Under the pieces are notes generated by a model. That model made no database searches. It had not been told where the DNA came from and worked only from the letters and a program-made list of their open reading frames with translations. A stretch of DNA of 22,054 bases from Eledone cirrhosa (taxonomy: Eukaryota): positions 1 through 22,054 of the forward strand of contig CAXHJY010000448.1 in assembly GCA_964016885.1 (NCBI GenBank). Direction: 5' to 3'. The position numbers and the translations under genes were made by a program. This document shows, one piece after another, positions 3,908 through 13,400 of the stretch. How positions within the stretch are numbered: position 1 is the stretch's first letter; every line of letters starts with the position of its first letter.

Positions 3908-5096
3908 CATCATCATCATCATCATCAACGTTTAACATCCGTGTTCCACGCTTGCATGGGTTTGGATGGGGGTATTCCCACTTGAGGCAAGAGTGATTCT
4001 CTTGCTCGCATAGGACTGTCTGGCAGGTTTTCTACAGTTGGATGCCCTTCCTAACACCAACCACATTTACAGTGTGGGTCTGGGAGGTTTTTACCGTGTT
4101 GCCTACACGGCCACATTACAGCGTGGGCTGTGTGTTTTTTTGTCGTGACACCTACACGATCTCATTTGTTTCGGCCTGGATGGTGTGGCACCAACATAAC
4201 TTTACATAGAAGGGTGGGGGGGGGGGGGGTATTTTGTTAGAGCTGCCTACTGACTGTAGTAGGTTTTACTTTGTATTTAGGTAAGGCGGGTCTTCTCTAT
4301 TACTGAGTACCGCCAAAGGTCTCGGTCCAGTGACATTGTCTTGGTGAGGTGTAAGTGTGTGAGGTCGGAGTTTATCAGCTCGTCCCAGGTTTTTCTGGGT
4401 CTGCCTATTCCGTGGCTACCGTCTATCTTTATTGCCCTGCACTTTGTTATACAGCTATCGTCCTTCATGCGCATCACGTGACCATACCAACGTAGCCTTC
4501 TCTCTAGTAAACAACATCTGATCCCTCTTATTTCTAATTTTTTCCTTAGTTCGTTTATGCTTTGTCGTTCACGTATATTACTATTACACATCCAGCGGAG
4601 CATGCAAGCTTCGTTTCTCTCTAGTCTGCGTATATCCTCTGCACACAATGCCCAGGTCTCAATGCCATGCAACATTGCTGTTCGTATGCAGGCATCGTAC
4701 AGCCTGCCTTTCATTTTTAGGGAGAACCCTTTAGCGGCTAATAGTGGTATAAGCTCTCTGAATTTTTTCCACCCAGTTCTGACTCTAGCTACTGTACTTT
4801 CAGAGCACCCTCCCCCACTGCTGATTTTATCACCCAGGTAACGGAAGCTGTCCACTATTTCTATAGAAACCTCTGCGCAGTTGAAAGAGCTAGTATTTTA
4901 CGGGCACTTGCTGCTACTTATTTCCCCAGAACACTGGCCACATGTAAAATCTATGTTCTTAGTTAGCTTACCTGTGATCCCACTACATCTTTTATGCACC
5001 CAAACTTTGCATTTGGGACACAAAATTTCTACCTACGCCTTTCCTACACTCTGCGCATGGCCACTTCCCGGAGGGGACCGCCGCCATATTTTCTTT
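3908..5096 (-). mobile_element. RTE-clade LINE copy 1, 5'-truncated, with full 3' UTR and (GAT)n tail
   Basis: C-terminal RTE motifs [24 protein letters not shown] and DRDLWR are present. A 3' UTR of about 370 bp ends in plus-strand (CAT)6. It is highly similar to the three copies at 15046-20549. Confidence 0.92.
4277..5096 (-). pseudogene. RTE ORF C-terminal fragment (PHD finger plus RT C-terminus), disrupted
   Basis: ORF 4277-4855 is open. Upstream there is an in-frame stop near 4898-4900 (TGC CCG TAA versus TGC CCA CAA in copy 4) and a 5-bp deletion near 5026 relative to copies 2-4. Confidence 0.88.
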
Positions 5097-7414
<2,318 letters not shown>

Positions 7415-7624
7415 GTATTAAGTATACTATTTATGGTTATGCAAATAGAAAAACCTTTTGTAGTTATATATATTTTTTTAAACCCTAAATAGTGGTAGGC
7501 AGTAATGTATTACTACCTTATTACCAGTAAGTTAAATAGCTCAATGTAATAACATCAGATGATTTACAGAGCAGTTATATGAATTATAAGAATCAAAGAA
7601 CTGTTCAAAACATTTTTATGCTTA
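7415..7624 (-). repeat. Inverted Penelope pLTR-tail/5'-leader segment
   Basis: 7577-7624 (ATATGAATTATAAGAATCAAAGAACTGTTCAAAACATTTTTATGCTTA) is the exact reverse complement of 10270-10317. Assigning 7415-7576 to the element is inference. Confidence 0.8.
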
Positions 7625-7779
7625 TTTACATTTACGTGGATACCAAGTCTAATCACCCTAGATCAATATTAAACTCTATCTCTAAGGGGCTATCCAATAG
7701 AATCTCTAATCTATCCTATGACGCAAACATATTTAGCAAAAACTCGCAATATTATAATCAAGCATTAGCTATAATTTAG
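7625..7779 (+). pseudogene. Penelope RT thumb remnant
   Basis: YVDTKSNHPRSILNSISKGLSNRISNLS matches the Y...SNHP...RIS pattern at the C-terminus of PLE RTs. It ends at a premature stop. The upstream part of ORF 7579-7779 is the inverted repeat and is not coding. Confidence 0.75.
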
Positions 7780-7832
7780 AGATTGAGTTCCTACCTAAGA
7801 AAACACATAGCTACAACATCATCTCGCACAAT

Positions 7833-8817
7833 ATGTCCATGGGGAAACCTAGTAATATGAATAGCAACCACATGCACACTAAAGCGGAGGGTGCCACCAA
7901 AAGTAACCATTACCACAGAAACTACCGTAGTACATTAGGAGGAAACAACACACCAGACACTAAAAACAAAAATAGAAGAAATAATACATTTTTCCACCCT
8001 CCTTTCAACCTAAACGTCTCCACCAACATACCTAGGGCTTTCTTCTCACTACTAGATAAAAACTTCCCTCTAGGACACAAGTACCATAACCTTTTAAACA
8101 AAAACATTATTAAAATCTCATACTCTACGACGCCTAACTTAGCATACCACATAGCTAGCAGCAATAAAAGTAAAATTAATTCTTACTTCCAACAAACGAA
8201 ATCACAACAGGAGGTAAACCTTCAAAATACCTCTGTAGCAAGCAACCCTAATAACGGCAGTAATAATAGAAATAACACTAGTATAAGAAATAACACCGGG
8301 GTCGACAACCCAAATGTCCAAAATCCTATAGCTACCACCCGGACTTCTACACAGCATTATAACCAGCAGACTAACACCCAGGATAATTGTAACTGTATAG
8401 CTAATAGAACCTGCCCTTTAGATAATAAATGCCTAACCAAGGATATCATATACTCTTGCACCGTCACAACTAGCAACTCTTCAGAAACCTATGTAGGCTC
8501 CACTTCTAACTGCTTCAAAATCAGATATAATTCGCACATCCACTCGTTCAAAAAGCACAGTCTAGCCAACTCCACCTCACTATCTAGCTACATACACTAT
8601 CTAAAAACTAAAAATAAACCATACACACTCAAATGGGAAGTGATAGGCAGCGCGACTTCGTACAAACCACCTAATAAATTTTGTAACCTCTGTATACTAG
8701 AGACCCACACTATTATCTTCTCTAACCGTAACCTACTTAACAAAAAAATCTGAAGTGTTTGCAACTTGCCAGCACCGCTTCAGACATTCCTTCCAAAACT
8801 TTAAGCCCAATATATAG
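7833..8817 (+). pseudogene. Penelope linker plus GIY-YIG endonuclease, +1 frameshift near the C-terminus
   Basis: Motifs FHPPFN, KISYS, CNC-x5-CPLDNKC, IIYSC..YVGST (GIY-YIG), RYNSH, CNLCILE and LLNK are present. After the A7 run at 8742-8748 the alternative frame continues SEVFATCQHRFRH to TAG at 8815-8817, which is the expected Neptune-type ending. Confidence 0.88.
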
Positions 8818-10228
8818 CAATGTCGGACTTGAACCAGACACCACCTCTAGCATCAAACACCATCGGCACACCTTATACCACATCCCCACACTCATTGATC
8901 TAATATAACACAAATCGGGACATCCCTCTAGAACCCTTCACAGTAGGAATACTCCTTTGTACTGCTACTTTAGGTGTGACTACATCCAGTTGCTTGAACT
9001 GCACTACACCACTTTATAGTTAATGTAAAATTTAAGCATTGGATTGATTGTATTGTTGGTGCTATGCGGAGGAAGTGCCATCGTTGGTTAAATGGAAAAC
9101 TAATTAATCTAGTAACGTTGATGAGCTGTACGACCGGTATGCTGAGTGCAGTGAATGTATTGCAGGTGGTGTATGGGTTGTACATATATGTATGATTTGA
9201 TGGTCGGATCGGAGACATGAGGAGTGTGGATTGACCTCTGGTTGGCCCTGGTGATGATTATCTTTCGACATCCAATATAGCATGCACTGACCCGGAAATT
9301 ACCAGGGATCATTGTGTGTTGAAGTGATTCTGCAATCACCTTGCCTGGTTCTTTGAGTAGACTGCAATCACAATGATCAGTAATTTAGAAATCTCGCTCG
9401 TCGTGTCTAATATTCATTTGTGGCACTCTACGATGGCGGTTAATCACCATAATAAGAACACCTTCAGCACAGCTTAATAGACTACTCTATAGTTAAAACA
9501 CTTTAAATTTTTAGAAATCTTTCAGAAACTGCGCATAACCATATAAGTTAGGGACTATTTTGAGACAGAATTTAATAGTTAGTAATAGAAACCACTGAGT
9601 TACCTCCCCTTAGCCACACACACACTTCCGGGTAATATTTCGATGTCGATTCTCGCAACGTAACAACCTGCTGTATTGAGCTAAAGAACATCAGACTTCG
9701 ATTCTCTAACTGGATTGTCAAACGCCCAATATCGAATCGTCGTGGATTATGTGAGGGGCATATAATCTGAAAAATACGCTCCCCAGACTATGAAAATGTC
9801 GCAGTGCATGAAATCCATATCATCGCTTCGCTACGCATTTCCAATATTTTTAATGCTTACATTATTTTTAATACTTATATTATTTCTCCACACACAGGCT
9901 ATAACAATCATATAAAGAATTCATTACCAGATCAACCCCCTTAACACTCTTGATTACCTGCTTAAGTGCTTCTATTACACGTAACTCTCTGCCACACTAT
10001 ATAAACAAGACGCACGTGCTTGCCACACATATAACCATTGCACTCTATAACCGCTTAATTTCATGTATTTTAACCTGTATTTTTGATTGCATCTTTTAAT
10101 ATGAATGTAATCTCCAAATGTATACTGCCACACTAAATGCTGTAATGAATGTTGACCCACAATATTTGCATATGTATCTGTCTCTTGGGTGAAAAGGAGG
10201 TCATATAAGTGTTCATTCAATAATAAAT

Positions 10229-10275
10229 TGCTCCGAAGAATCCAAACCTCGGTTTGGAGGAAACAGTTGTAAGCA
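10229..10275 (+). ncRNA. Minimal type I hammerhead ribozyme (variant core)
   Basis: Reads TGCT-CCGAAGA-A-TCCAAACC-TC-GGTTTGGA-G-GAAA-CAGTTG-TA-AGCA. Stem I is TGCT/AGCA, stem II is an 8-bp inverted repeat, and stem III ACAGTTGT is self-complementary. Predicted cleavage is after GUA at 10271. It lies at the 3' end of a PLE in sense orientation. Confidence 0.8.
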
Positions 10276-10317
10276 TAAAAATGTTTTGAACAGTTCTTTG
10301 ATTCTTATAATTCATAT

Positions 10318-10369
10318 GTATATATATATATATAAATGTATATATATATATATATGTATGTATATATGT
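10318..10369. repeat. Short (TA)n tract between the 3' ends of the PLE and LINE family B
   Basis: 52 bp of TA with TG and AATG interruptions. Confidence 0.95.
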
Positions 10370-10457: not shown

Positions 10458-13400
10458 TCAGGATTTGGGCACCATGGCCCATTCGAGAAGAGAATTACTG
10501 TTTGCGGAGACATATCCGGGTGTGGGTGGTTTGTCCGGGATTACTTGGAGGAATTTGTCCAAAGACTTCTTGAATCTTGTGTGGTCAGTTTCTGTTTTGA
10601 CGTGTCCTGGTGTGATGTTGAAGAGAGCAGGGCCGATTGAGGTGAAATAATTGTGCCGTATTGTTGTTATGAGTTGCGATTTAGATTTTTGAATGGGACG
10701 GATAGCACGGGGCCCAAGCCTTGGGTGTATCTTGAAGGCGATGCCAACATCATTTGGGCAGTGATGATGGAACATTTTCCACATCATGCAGATAATATAA
10801 CGCTCACGGCGACGTTGGAGTGAGTAAAGTTTCAGGTTTTCCAATCGACCCCAGTAGTCAAGGTCTGACATGCCATCTATCTTTTTCGTGATTGCCCTTT
10901 GAGGAGCTTCAAGTTTCATGATACTTTGTTTCGTGTGGGGAGACCACAGTGGACAACAGTATTCAAGGTGTGGTCGGGCGAAAGTAGAGAAGAGAAGGAT
11001 AATGGTGCGGGAATCTCTCGACTGGAAGGTTCTGAGGATCCAGGAACACATTCTGCGGGCCATGTCAACTTTGCTGCTTATATGCGTGGTCCAGCTTATG
11101 TTGCTGTCCACGGTTACTCCCAAGTCTCTGATGTTGTTAGATGCCACGAGAGTTTCCCCGGAGGGAAGGGAGTACGGGAGTTTCAGAGCATCCTCTTTTC
11201 CAAAGTGGATCAGTTCGAATTTGTCTTCGTTCAGTAACATGTTGTTCTTTTCTGCCCATTGGGTAACAGCCAGTAGGTCTGACTGAAGGCTTATCCGGTC
11301 ATCCACGCCATTGATGACCTTTTGGAGCTTGGAATCATCAGCGAAAATTTTAATGTTGCTGTGTTTGATGATGTCAGTGATGTCATTAATATAGATGATG
11401 AAGAGAAGTGGGCCCAACACAGTGCCTTGTGGGACTCCACTACTGACTTTGGCTGGGCTTGATTTGACTCCCTCAACTACAACATGTTGGGTTCTGTTTG
11501 ACAGGAAGCTCTTGATCCACTGCAGCAGCTTTCCAGTGACACCAATATTGGACAGCTTTCTCAGTAGAATGTTATGATCAACCCTGTCAAAGGCCTTGCT
11601 GAAATCAAGGTAGATAACATCAGTGTTGGAACCCTCTCCCAAGGCTCTCAAAATGTCATCAAAGTGATGCAGTAGTTGCGTCAGGCAATCCCTTCCATTA
11701 CGGAATCCATGCTGGTTGGAGTTCAGCATATTGTTACTCTCAAGGAAGTGGGTCATTCGCGATCTCACCACTCGCTCAAATACCTTAATGATATGAGAGG
11801 TGAGTGAGATTGGACGGTAATTCACGGCAAGGGATTTGTTTCCCTTTTTGAAAACTGGGACAACAGACTGGGATAGAAGGTTTTCTGGCACATATCCAGC
11901 ATCCAGTGAGTTCCGCCACAGATTGGCAAGAGGAGAAGCAAGTTGGTGTTGACACGCCTTCAAGACACAAGCAGGGAACCTATCGGGACCTACTGCTGAA
12001 TTATGTTTGATTTCCTTTATTGCCGCCAAGACATCAGGGGCGCCAAACGTTATGTCCGATAAGGTGTAATGGGGAGTAACATCGCCGATACAGCCCAGAT
12101 CGGCCATATCAGGATTGCTGAAAACAGAGCAGTATTGTTTCTGCAGTATCTCACCCATGGTTTTAGCATTGTCTTGAAGAGTGCCATTTTCATCAATTAG
12201 AGGGCCAACAGTAGAGCCAGTGATTTTGTGTTTTTTTGCAAATGAAAAGAACACTTTGGGATTGAGTTTGATCTTCTCAATGGCCCAGGCCTCTTCAGCT
12301 CTTCTCTGATTGTTGATGAGGGACATTATGTTGTTTTGGAGGTTATGTTTTTTAATCTCTAGTGATGAAATGGCAGTCAAGTTGATGTGTTGCTGCTGAC
12401 AGTATTTCAGCTTGTTGATTTTTTTGTTCGTTCTCTTAATTTTTCTGATGAGTGTTTTTCTATTTCTAGGGATTCTGCTCTTAGATTTGTTTATAGTTCT
12501 TAATGGGGTGTGTTTAGCACATATGTTTGTAACAGTGTCCACAAAAGTCTGCCAGGACTTTTTGATGTTAGTGGGTGTATGAGTGTGCGTGAAGGACCAG
12601 TCGACATGTGCAAGATCATGACTGATCGCTTCCCAGTTTGCATTGTGGAAATCCATAGCGTCAAACGGATGGACAGGAGAAATGACATTGGGTTTGTATA
12701 TTGGACGGTGGAATCTCAGATCACAGAGAACCATGTCATGATCAGAGAGTAGAGTTTTCTCCACTGCAATATTGTGGATATTGTCAGTGTGATTGCTGAA
12801 AATTAAGTCTAGGACGTTTTTGTGGCACCTCGTTGGTTCGAGCACTAGTTGGGATAGGAAGAAATCATCCATGAAGTCAAGAAGCGATTCCACAGCTTCC
12901 CTGTCAGAGGTTGAGGCAGAAGAACCTGGTGGCAGGGTGTTTGTGGACCAGTCAACTCCGGGGAGGTTGAAGTCCCCCATCATTAAGATGTTGTCAGGGT
13001 GACACTCTTGGATGAAACACTTTATGCTGTTGAGGCATTCCTTGAAGCATGGTACAGGCGTTTGGGGTGGCCTATAGAGCCCAACTACTAATAGGTTGTT
13101 GGTTTGACTGAATACAGTGACTGCCTCACAGTATCCATTAGTGAATATGTTCATAGCCTCTGTTGAGAAAGAATTATGGACATAAATGGCAGTTCCGCCC
13201 TTTCTTCTGCCAGCGCGATCAGCACGGATGGCTTTGAAATTTTTCACTTTCACCTCGGCTTCCAAGTGGAGGTTACTGAGATGGGTTTCAGTGAGGACGA
13301 AGAAAGGGATGTGGTTTGGATGGACATCAATCCAGTCCTCCAGGAATTTGATCTTCCATTTTTGAGTATTGGTGGAAGGGCTGATGCCTTGGGCGTTAAG

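Follow-up and report, generated by a model that had tools for sequence, protein, structure and literature searches.

The question raised by this locus is whether a single retrotransposon copy, the inverted arm of which stops beside a predicted ribozyme cut, records both the cutting of its RNA in the living animal and the priming of two cDNAs from opposite sides of one target. The window, i.e. the whole stretch of DNA analysed, is an entire 22-kb contig (22,054 nucleotides) from the 3.0 Gb genome of Eledone cirrhosa. On the evidence of its sequence, the window element is a Penelope-like retrotransposon (PLE) of the Hydra type, truncated at the 5' end and inserted head-to-head. The left target flank is a (TA)n/(TG) microsatellite (5100..7414), followed on the minus strand by the 162-nt tail of the inverted arm (7415..7576), the outer end of which is the long start site, +208 from the predicted cut, and by the inverted copy of 10270-10317 (7577..7624, minus strand), in which 7577-7622 represent positions 0 to +45 past that cut. 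The inversion junction (7623..7628) holds 4 to 6 bases templated by neither arm, without microhomology. The direct arm then comprises, on the plus strand, a 5'-truncated and frameshifted ORF encoding the end or thumb of the reverse transcriptase (RT), a CxCx5C linker and a GIY-YIG endonuclease (EN) (7629..8814), the 3' untranslated region or pseudo-LTR (pLTR; 8815..10228), a motif read from the sequence as a type I minimal hammerhead (10229..10275) with its predicted cut between 10271 and 10272, and an end without a tail at the short start site, +46 (10272..10317). The right target flank is (TA)n (10318..10369). The first-pass annotation had described 7577-7624 as a perfect 48-bp reverse complement of 10270-10317 and both outer ends as merging into (TA)n; both descriptions were borne out, the former by BLAST (E 2e-19) with no extension on either side.

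A second copy of the same insertion was found at locus L061 (contig C262), 99.2% identical and sharing the left flank, and was counted together with the window copy as one event. The LINE that runs from 10370 onward in the window is missing at this duplicate locus and is likely a later insertion. Further LINE ORFs occupy 709-2256, 4277-4897 and 10458-13595 of the window, and three near-duplicate blocks of LINE fragments lie within (TA)n at 15052-20547. The window copy itself is a dead, ordinary truncated insertion: its ORF corresponds to residues 421-819 of an intact 819-aa sister ORF, with frame changes near 7760-7770 and 8740-8750.

The intact ORF, at locus L276, carries a YRDD RT motif and a VIY...YVG endonuclease motif, together with RWR, DKT and the CxCx5C linker; it lacks CCHH, and its endonuclease E/N is flanked by CxxC and CxH. 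These motifs match the Hydra-clade marks described in PMC8557442, with RWR in place of RWK, and on that basis the element is provisionally assigned to this clade. Its organisation is that of an EN+ PLE, namely a single ORF with RT followed by a GIY-YIG endonuclease, pLTRs in partial tandem, an inverted 5'-truncated copy and a tail at one end; its (TA)n insertion sites are those of the Hydra clade. The Neptune and Nematis clades were also considered and rejected, their CX2-5CxxC linker and CCHH inside the EN being absent from the 819-aa ORF. Pfam recovered GIY-YIG from the window fragment only at E 0.05 and no family above the cut-off from the full 819-aa ORF; the ORF has 304 full-length relatives, single ones of which are annotated RVT_1 or GIY-YIG. 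An asparagine-rich stretch between RT and EN (window 7950-8400) resembles the N-rich inserts described for rotifer Penelopes in PMC3846280.

The intact ORF belongs to a younger sister subfamily (L268-L283), in which stem III is a perfect palindrome and dozens of ORFs are open and almost identical, with open frames of 832 aa (in L276, 819 aa counted from the ATG). This subfamily has likely been active recently; one of its insertions (L268/L269) spans more than two units on one arm. Beyond the window's family (family A), family B (L369-L398) carries a repeat of about 510 nt upstream, and in family C (L399-L428) an inverted repeat of about 135 nt extends across the hammerhead; the composite nature of the reference copy may account for part of both repeats. 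Hammerheads also occur in at least four further families (L024, L012, L060/L074 and L285), which end 40-55 nt past the cut in (TA)n, and only untailed arms were seen in these.

With the motif definition of PMC4209133, the putative hammerhead at 10229-10275 comprises a 4-bp stem I, an 8-bp stem II and a short, near-palindromic stem III. The family A core is CCGAAGA, a U4C variant, with an A/G mismatch in place of the G10.1-C11.1 pair; families B and C have U4. Across families there are compensatory changes in stem I, and stem III is kept palindromic or near-palindromic. The core boxes, the three stems and this covariation are those of a type I minimal hammerhead, a class predicted to cleave itself immediately after the NUH triplet; indirect support comes from the accumulation of 5' ends at this bond, described below. 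Plain minimum-free-energy folding recovered stem II and not the full hammerhead fold, and an Rfam scan of the window gave no hammerhead among the matches listed (150 of 275), only TA-repeat miRNA noise. The U4C change lowers activity in vitro, though it is tolerated in a viroid (PMC3088659), and minimal PLE hammerheads are stated to cleave poorly (PMC4209133). Base 10272, the first past the predicted cut, is hereafter position 0.

The inverted piece had been claimed to run about 160 nt beyond the direct copy, a claim that depends on these bases being element sequence and not unique flanking DNA. The 162-nt tail at 7415-7576 proved to be element sequence (1,165 first-look candidates): it follows the short end in 12 of 29 other loci examined, and where units stand in tandem it leads on into the 5' region of the following unit and its ATG. 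Among the 79 loci containing the matches listed (100 of 406), there were 125 3' ends, of which 66 were long (about +208), 58 short (+46) and one elsewhere. Every inverted insertion with both outer ends classifiable paired one long end with one short end (37/37), with no long-long and no short-short pairs; five more had one unclassifiable end, and in family B all eight inverted pairs with a visible outer end were also long-short (by eye). The proposal of two cDNAs primed about 46 and about 208 nt downstream of the cut, one per target side, is thus upheld by 124 of 125 ends and 37 of 37 pairs. Arm lengths in long insertions were not significantly correlated (rho 0.20, p 0.23, n 37). In the family A sample, six of 66 long arms and one of 58 short arms end at -640..-530, a cluster that possibly marks a pLTR transcription start. 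Neither the single tail nor the pair of start sites is new in kind: the former was noted in PMC8557442 and PMC3846280, and PMC11167929 demonstrated two internal starts with the tail in vitro equal to the interval between them. The strict pairing and the long tail are additions.

What fixes the two start sites appears to be a repeated hairpin. The first-pass annotation had placed priming at TA repeats; the start sites are not set by TA in the RNA, and each is marked by a copy of this hairpin. In copies that read through, both sites are followed by AACUGCUC, an inner stem-loop and UUGAGC, the sites lying 6-7 nt 5' of the hairpin GCUC...UUGAGC. In the window, the first copy (GCUC, inner stem-loop, UU, GAGC) lies directly 3' of the short site at 7539..7572 on the minus strand; the second, which follows the long site in read-through copies, is absent. 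In family A, as in its 81% relative, the hairpin is present after each of the two sites, and the motif follows the short site of two other hammerhead-bearing families (B and C). A second hairpin was predicted beforehand for the long sites of both B and C. In family B, all four of the 30 loci that read through its long site show it, followed by the homologous ORF start; none of 30 family C loci read through the long site, and no second hairpin was seen there. The possible end windows 5' of GCUC were 3-8, 5-8, 6-8 and 6-7 nt and, in a fifth case, mostly 5-8 nt, with 6-7 nt in common; at the family A long site, 5-8 nt is the value from 46 rows, a further 61 rows that stop at a polymorphic base 16 nt upstream having been excluded as an artefact. 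Shuffled 4.2-kb units contain the motif about 0.2 times each, compared with 2, 3 and 1 times in real units, and a third match was found inside one young copy. The first inner pair of the hairpin is U-A or C-G. As its outer 4 bp are invariant and its folding is weak (-3.4 to -8.3 kcal/mol), the hairpin may be read as sequence. As its second copy lies outside the long arm, it likely acts at the level of RNA, and we infer that it positions the reverse transcriptase. No report of a duplicated start-site hairpin was found in the mainly open-access literature covered.

Strict long-short pairing is also predicted by single priming, in which the long-site cDNA would prime itself by fold-back and the endonuclease would resolve the product at the short site. 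Both components have been proposed before, self-priming from junction palindromes in PMC3846280 and resolution by the EN as the source of the tail in PMC8557442. Several observations make this origin very unlikely. The short arm often reaches far 5' of the long arm (-2688 compared with -2 in the window) and so cannot be its copy; the same hairpin follows both ends, the second one outside the cDNA; and both tail ends are RT start sites in vitro (PMC11167929). Further, the palindromic junctions at L311, L361, L433, L351 and L336 have no loop and cannot be intramolecular fold-backs. Perfect palindromes of this kind need two molecules, which argues for the annealing of two cDNA ends and against fold-back.

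The 5' ends were examined relative to the predicted cut. In the unbiased sample of 124 arms, 116 read through the cut, eight stopped before it and none ended within 2 nt of it. Targeted breakpoint searches with the window's subfamily alone gave no clear peak, and among 56 of its ends curated by eye, the window excluded, one lay at 0, two at -1 and two at -2. For the younger subfamily, eight of about 88 ends lay at 0 (by eye, among the 100 of 205 matches listed). A joint pattern for both subfamilies returned 65 matches, all of which were fetched; six cases with indels or internal deletions were dropped and one was reassigned owing to a SNP. This left 59 5' ends in -11..+5, with 13 at position 0 against the 3.3-3.4 expected when actual junction sequences were simulated under the same filter (p 2-3e-5, or 1-3e-4 for a peak at any position). 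When one arm per insertion was counted, at least eight of 50 lay at 0 (p 0.008). The younger subfamily accounts for 12 of the 13 exact ends; the window's subfamily, with 18 ends in the joint set, has one at 0, four at -1 and one at -2. Approximately 0.8% of 2,889 passages end at 0, compared with about 0.2% per base nearby, both values being estimates at a filter sensitivity of about 55%. Ends at the cut are a minor class, about 1% of these passages, and most cDNAs read through; as a minor class, the breakpoint peak anticipated for the family does exist. Family B, which has a canonical core, had no end exactly at 0 among 32 arms, and among the 42 arms of family C, the two of one insertion end at 0 and -2 and those of another at +5/+9. 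Two loci, L219 (G000:C2:222171400-222176850) and L166, have arms that begin at -3 directly after foreign sequence; in L219 this sequence is 75% like the end of the window LINE fragments. A template jump or a later insertion may account for these two arms. No report of breakpoints at a PLE hammerhead cut was found in the mainly open-access literature covered.

A possible explanation for this peak other than cleavage is a structural or sequence hot spot on uncleaved RNA, either a stall of the RT at the end of stem I or a preference for joining at the self-complementary bases 0..+12. The breakpoints are overdispersed: a +6/+9 junction recurs in nine insertions and is about equal to the peak at 0 among the matches listed (100 of 205; by eye), which means that hot spots exist away from the scissile bond and is the main ground for caution. 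We tentatively read the +6/+9 junction as a trimmed run-off, although it may be an independent hot spot. A hot spot would also accord with the broad cluster of ends in stem II at -19..-24, with the weak U4C core, and with the lack of cleavage reads from the anole element (PMC11167929). Set against this, the peak is one base wide and at a position named in advance, whereas ends in the strong stem II are broadly clustered with no spike; pairs with both ends in -15..-3 are absent; and seven of nine short-short junctions with an arm at 0 or -1 contain filler (five) or only 1 nt of microhomology (two). Allowing for hot spots, the chance of a spike at the pre-named base is put at a few percent, by judgement and not by computation, and a hot spot alone is considered improbable. 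The small, sharp excess of copies starting at the predicted cut likely records hammerhead cutting in the living animal.

Short double insertions point in the same direction. Forty-two head-to-head insertions had both ends in -36..+24, in a pool that was not uniform, 20 regions having been picked by eye. In 26 of the 42, both ends fell in -2..+10, compared with a single insertion in +11..+23 and no insertion in either -15..-3 or -28..-16, and flanks were distinct where readable. Rows excluded were one long-long case that was a tandem centre and one short-short case that was a stray family C match, and L216, L235 and L305 had been miscalled through SNPs or deletions. In the joint set a short partner was present for 21 of 37 arms ending at -2 or above, compared with five of 22 ending below (p 0.015), and in several insertions with an end exactly at 0 both arms stop at the cut. 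At L336, L351, L050, L344 and L357, both arms lie within -2..+1 and are joined by 2-6 untemplated bases, the fillers consisting of A/T only in four of the five.

The junction of the window copy itself is less informative. The direct arm starts at 7629 and not at 7625, and the extra TA is not the junction microhomology that had been suggested, since the natural bases before 7629 differ from the window in all seven longer copies (7/7). The end of the left arm can be read in two ways, as -2 plus four unmatched bases or as 0 plus six. L061 has a C at 7624 and matches only to -1, so that even the TA is not common to the duplicates. That duplicate locus supports the window junction; four contig sets compared with 7425-7900 gave the tail/TA and ribozyme continuations as loose ends, with no joint listed. 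The right arm read through the ribozyme for 2.7 kb, as had been proposed for the direct-arm cDNA, and the left arm halted at about 0, making the window a mixed case.

For this one junction the probable reading is an ordinary 5' truncation, which by chance brought the end of the left arm close to the cut. At an estimated background of about 0.2% of arms per base, several arms per genome would land within 2 nt of the cut by chance; the partner arm passed through the ribozyme; and the junction class of -2 shows no excess, with one seen against 2.9 expected among arms without a short partner. Against chance, junctions of the run-off class typically carry untemplated A/T filler, a filler starting TA after an end at 0 would read as -2, L061 matches only to -1, and even where a short partner is lacking, five of 33 arms end at 0 (p 0.04). 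Weighing this last count against the single arm at -2, a run-off of cleaved RNA in the window is regarded as rather unlikely. The prediction of breakpoints at the cut holds for the family, as a minor class, and the window's own junction is no proof of cleavage; a chance end here concerns a single junction and is compatible with the explanation preferred for the family.

That explanation, which we consider probable, is that a cut within a TA repeat primed two cDNAs, one from either side, at two fixed sites in the RNA, and that for about 1% of the family's cDNAs synthesis likely ran off an RNA end that the hammerhead had produced. The protein would nick both strands of the repeat, the hairpin would position the reverse transcriptase, and one cDNA would be primed at each hairpin-marked site; microhomology of 0-3 nt, or a few A/T bases added without a template, would then link the two cDNA ends. 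On linear RNA cut by the hammerhead, both sites would lie near the 5' end and both cDNAs would run off, giving palindromic mini-insertions of about 250 bp, while uncleaved tandem or circular RNA would give long and tandem arms; circularisation after cleavage has been proposed for PLE hammerheads in PMC4209133. A wider and more tentative proposal, possible but short of probable, is that Hydra-type PLE insertions are a fossil record of an RNA cycle, in which hammerhead cutting in vivo would release unit-length RNA with hairpin-marked starts 46 and 208 nt from its new 5' end, a dimeric RT-endonuclease would use one hairpin per target strand, linear RNA would leave tiny palindromes at the cut, and re-ligated circles would leave long or more-than-unit arms.

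Cutting by PLE hammerheads in vivo is an open question according to PMC4209133, where such evidence is stated to be absent, and PMC8557442, where the function of the hammerhead is called unclear; no sign of it was found in PMC11167929. The excess of insertion ends at one base, at the scissile bond, serves as genomic evidence, if indirect, and its tally is a cheap assay for any PLE-rich assembly. The duplicated hairpin offers a concrete, mutable candidate determinant of internal initiation by a telomerase-related RT and would explain why there is exactly one tail per inverted copy.

In L1 twin priming, both target ends prime cDNA and the resulting inversion is joined by microhomology, the arms being without overlap and the second site variable. 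In the element described here, by contrast, the arms overlap and both sites are fixed. With the Hydra-clade PLEs of PMC8557442, the element shares RW(R/K), DKT, the CxCx5C linker, the lack of CCHH, and CxxC and CxH around the catalytic E/N, together with a pLTR hammerhead, (TA)n targets, and tandem and inverted truncated copies tailed at one end; the tails here, however, measure 162 nt in family A, about 100 nt in family B and about 70 nt in family C, compared with the 30-40 bp described there for PLEs. The metazoan minimal PLE hammerheads of PMC4209133 have in common with family A a long helix II, a short helix I, an extra base after position 9 and a palindromic helix III suited to dimers, and family A differs from that set in its U4C core and in the A/G mismatch instead of G10.1-C11.1. 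Poseidon PAc of Anolis (PMC11167929), from a different clade, likewise has two internal RT starts spaced by the tail, both target strands cut and extended, and AT-rich targets; in this element, the one PLE tested, cleavage was dispensable and reads ending at the hammerhead cut were absent. The start sites of Poseidon PAc are adjacent, within one AC-rich stem-loop inside the ORF, whereas here both lie upstream of the ATG with 162 nt between them, and a separate hairpin copy accompanies each.
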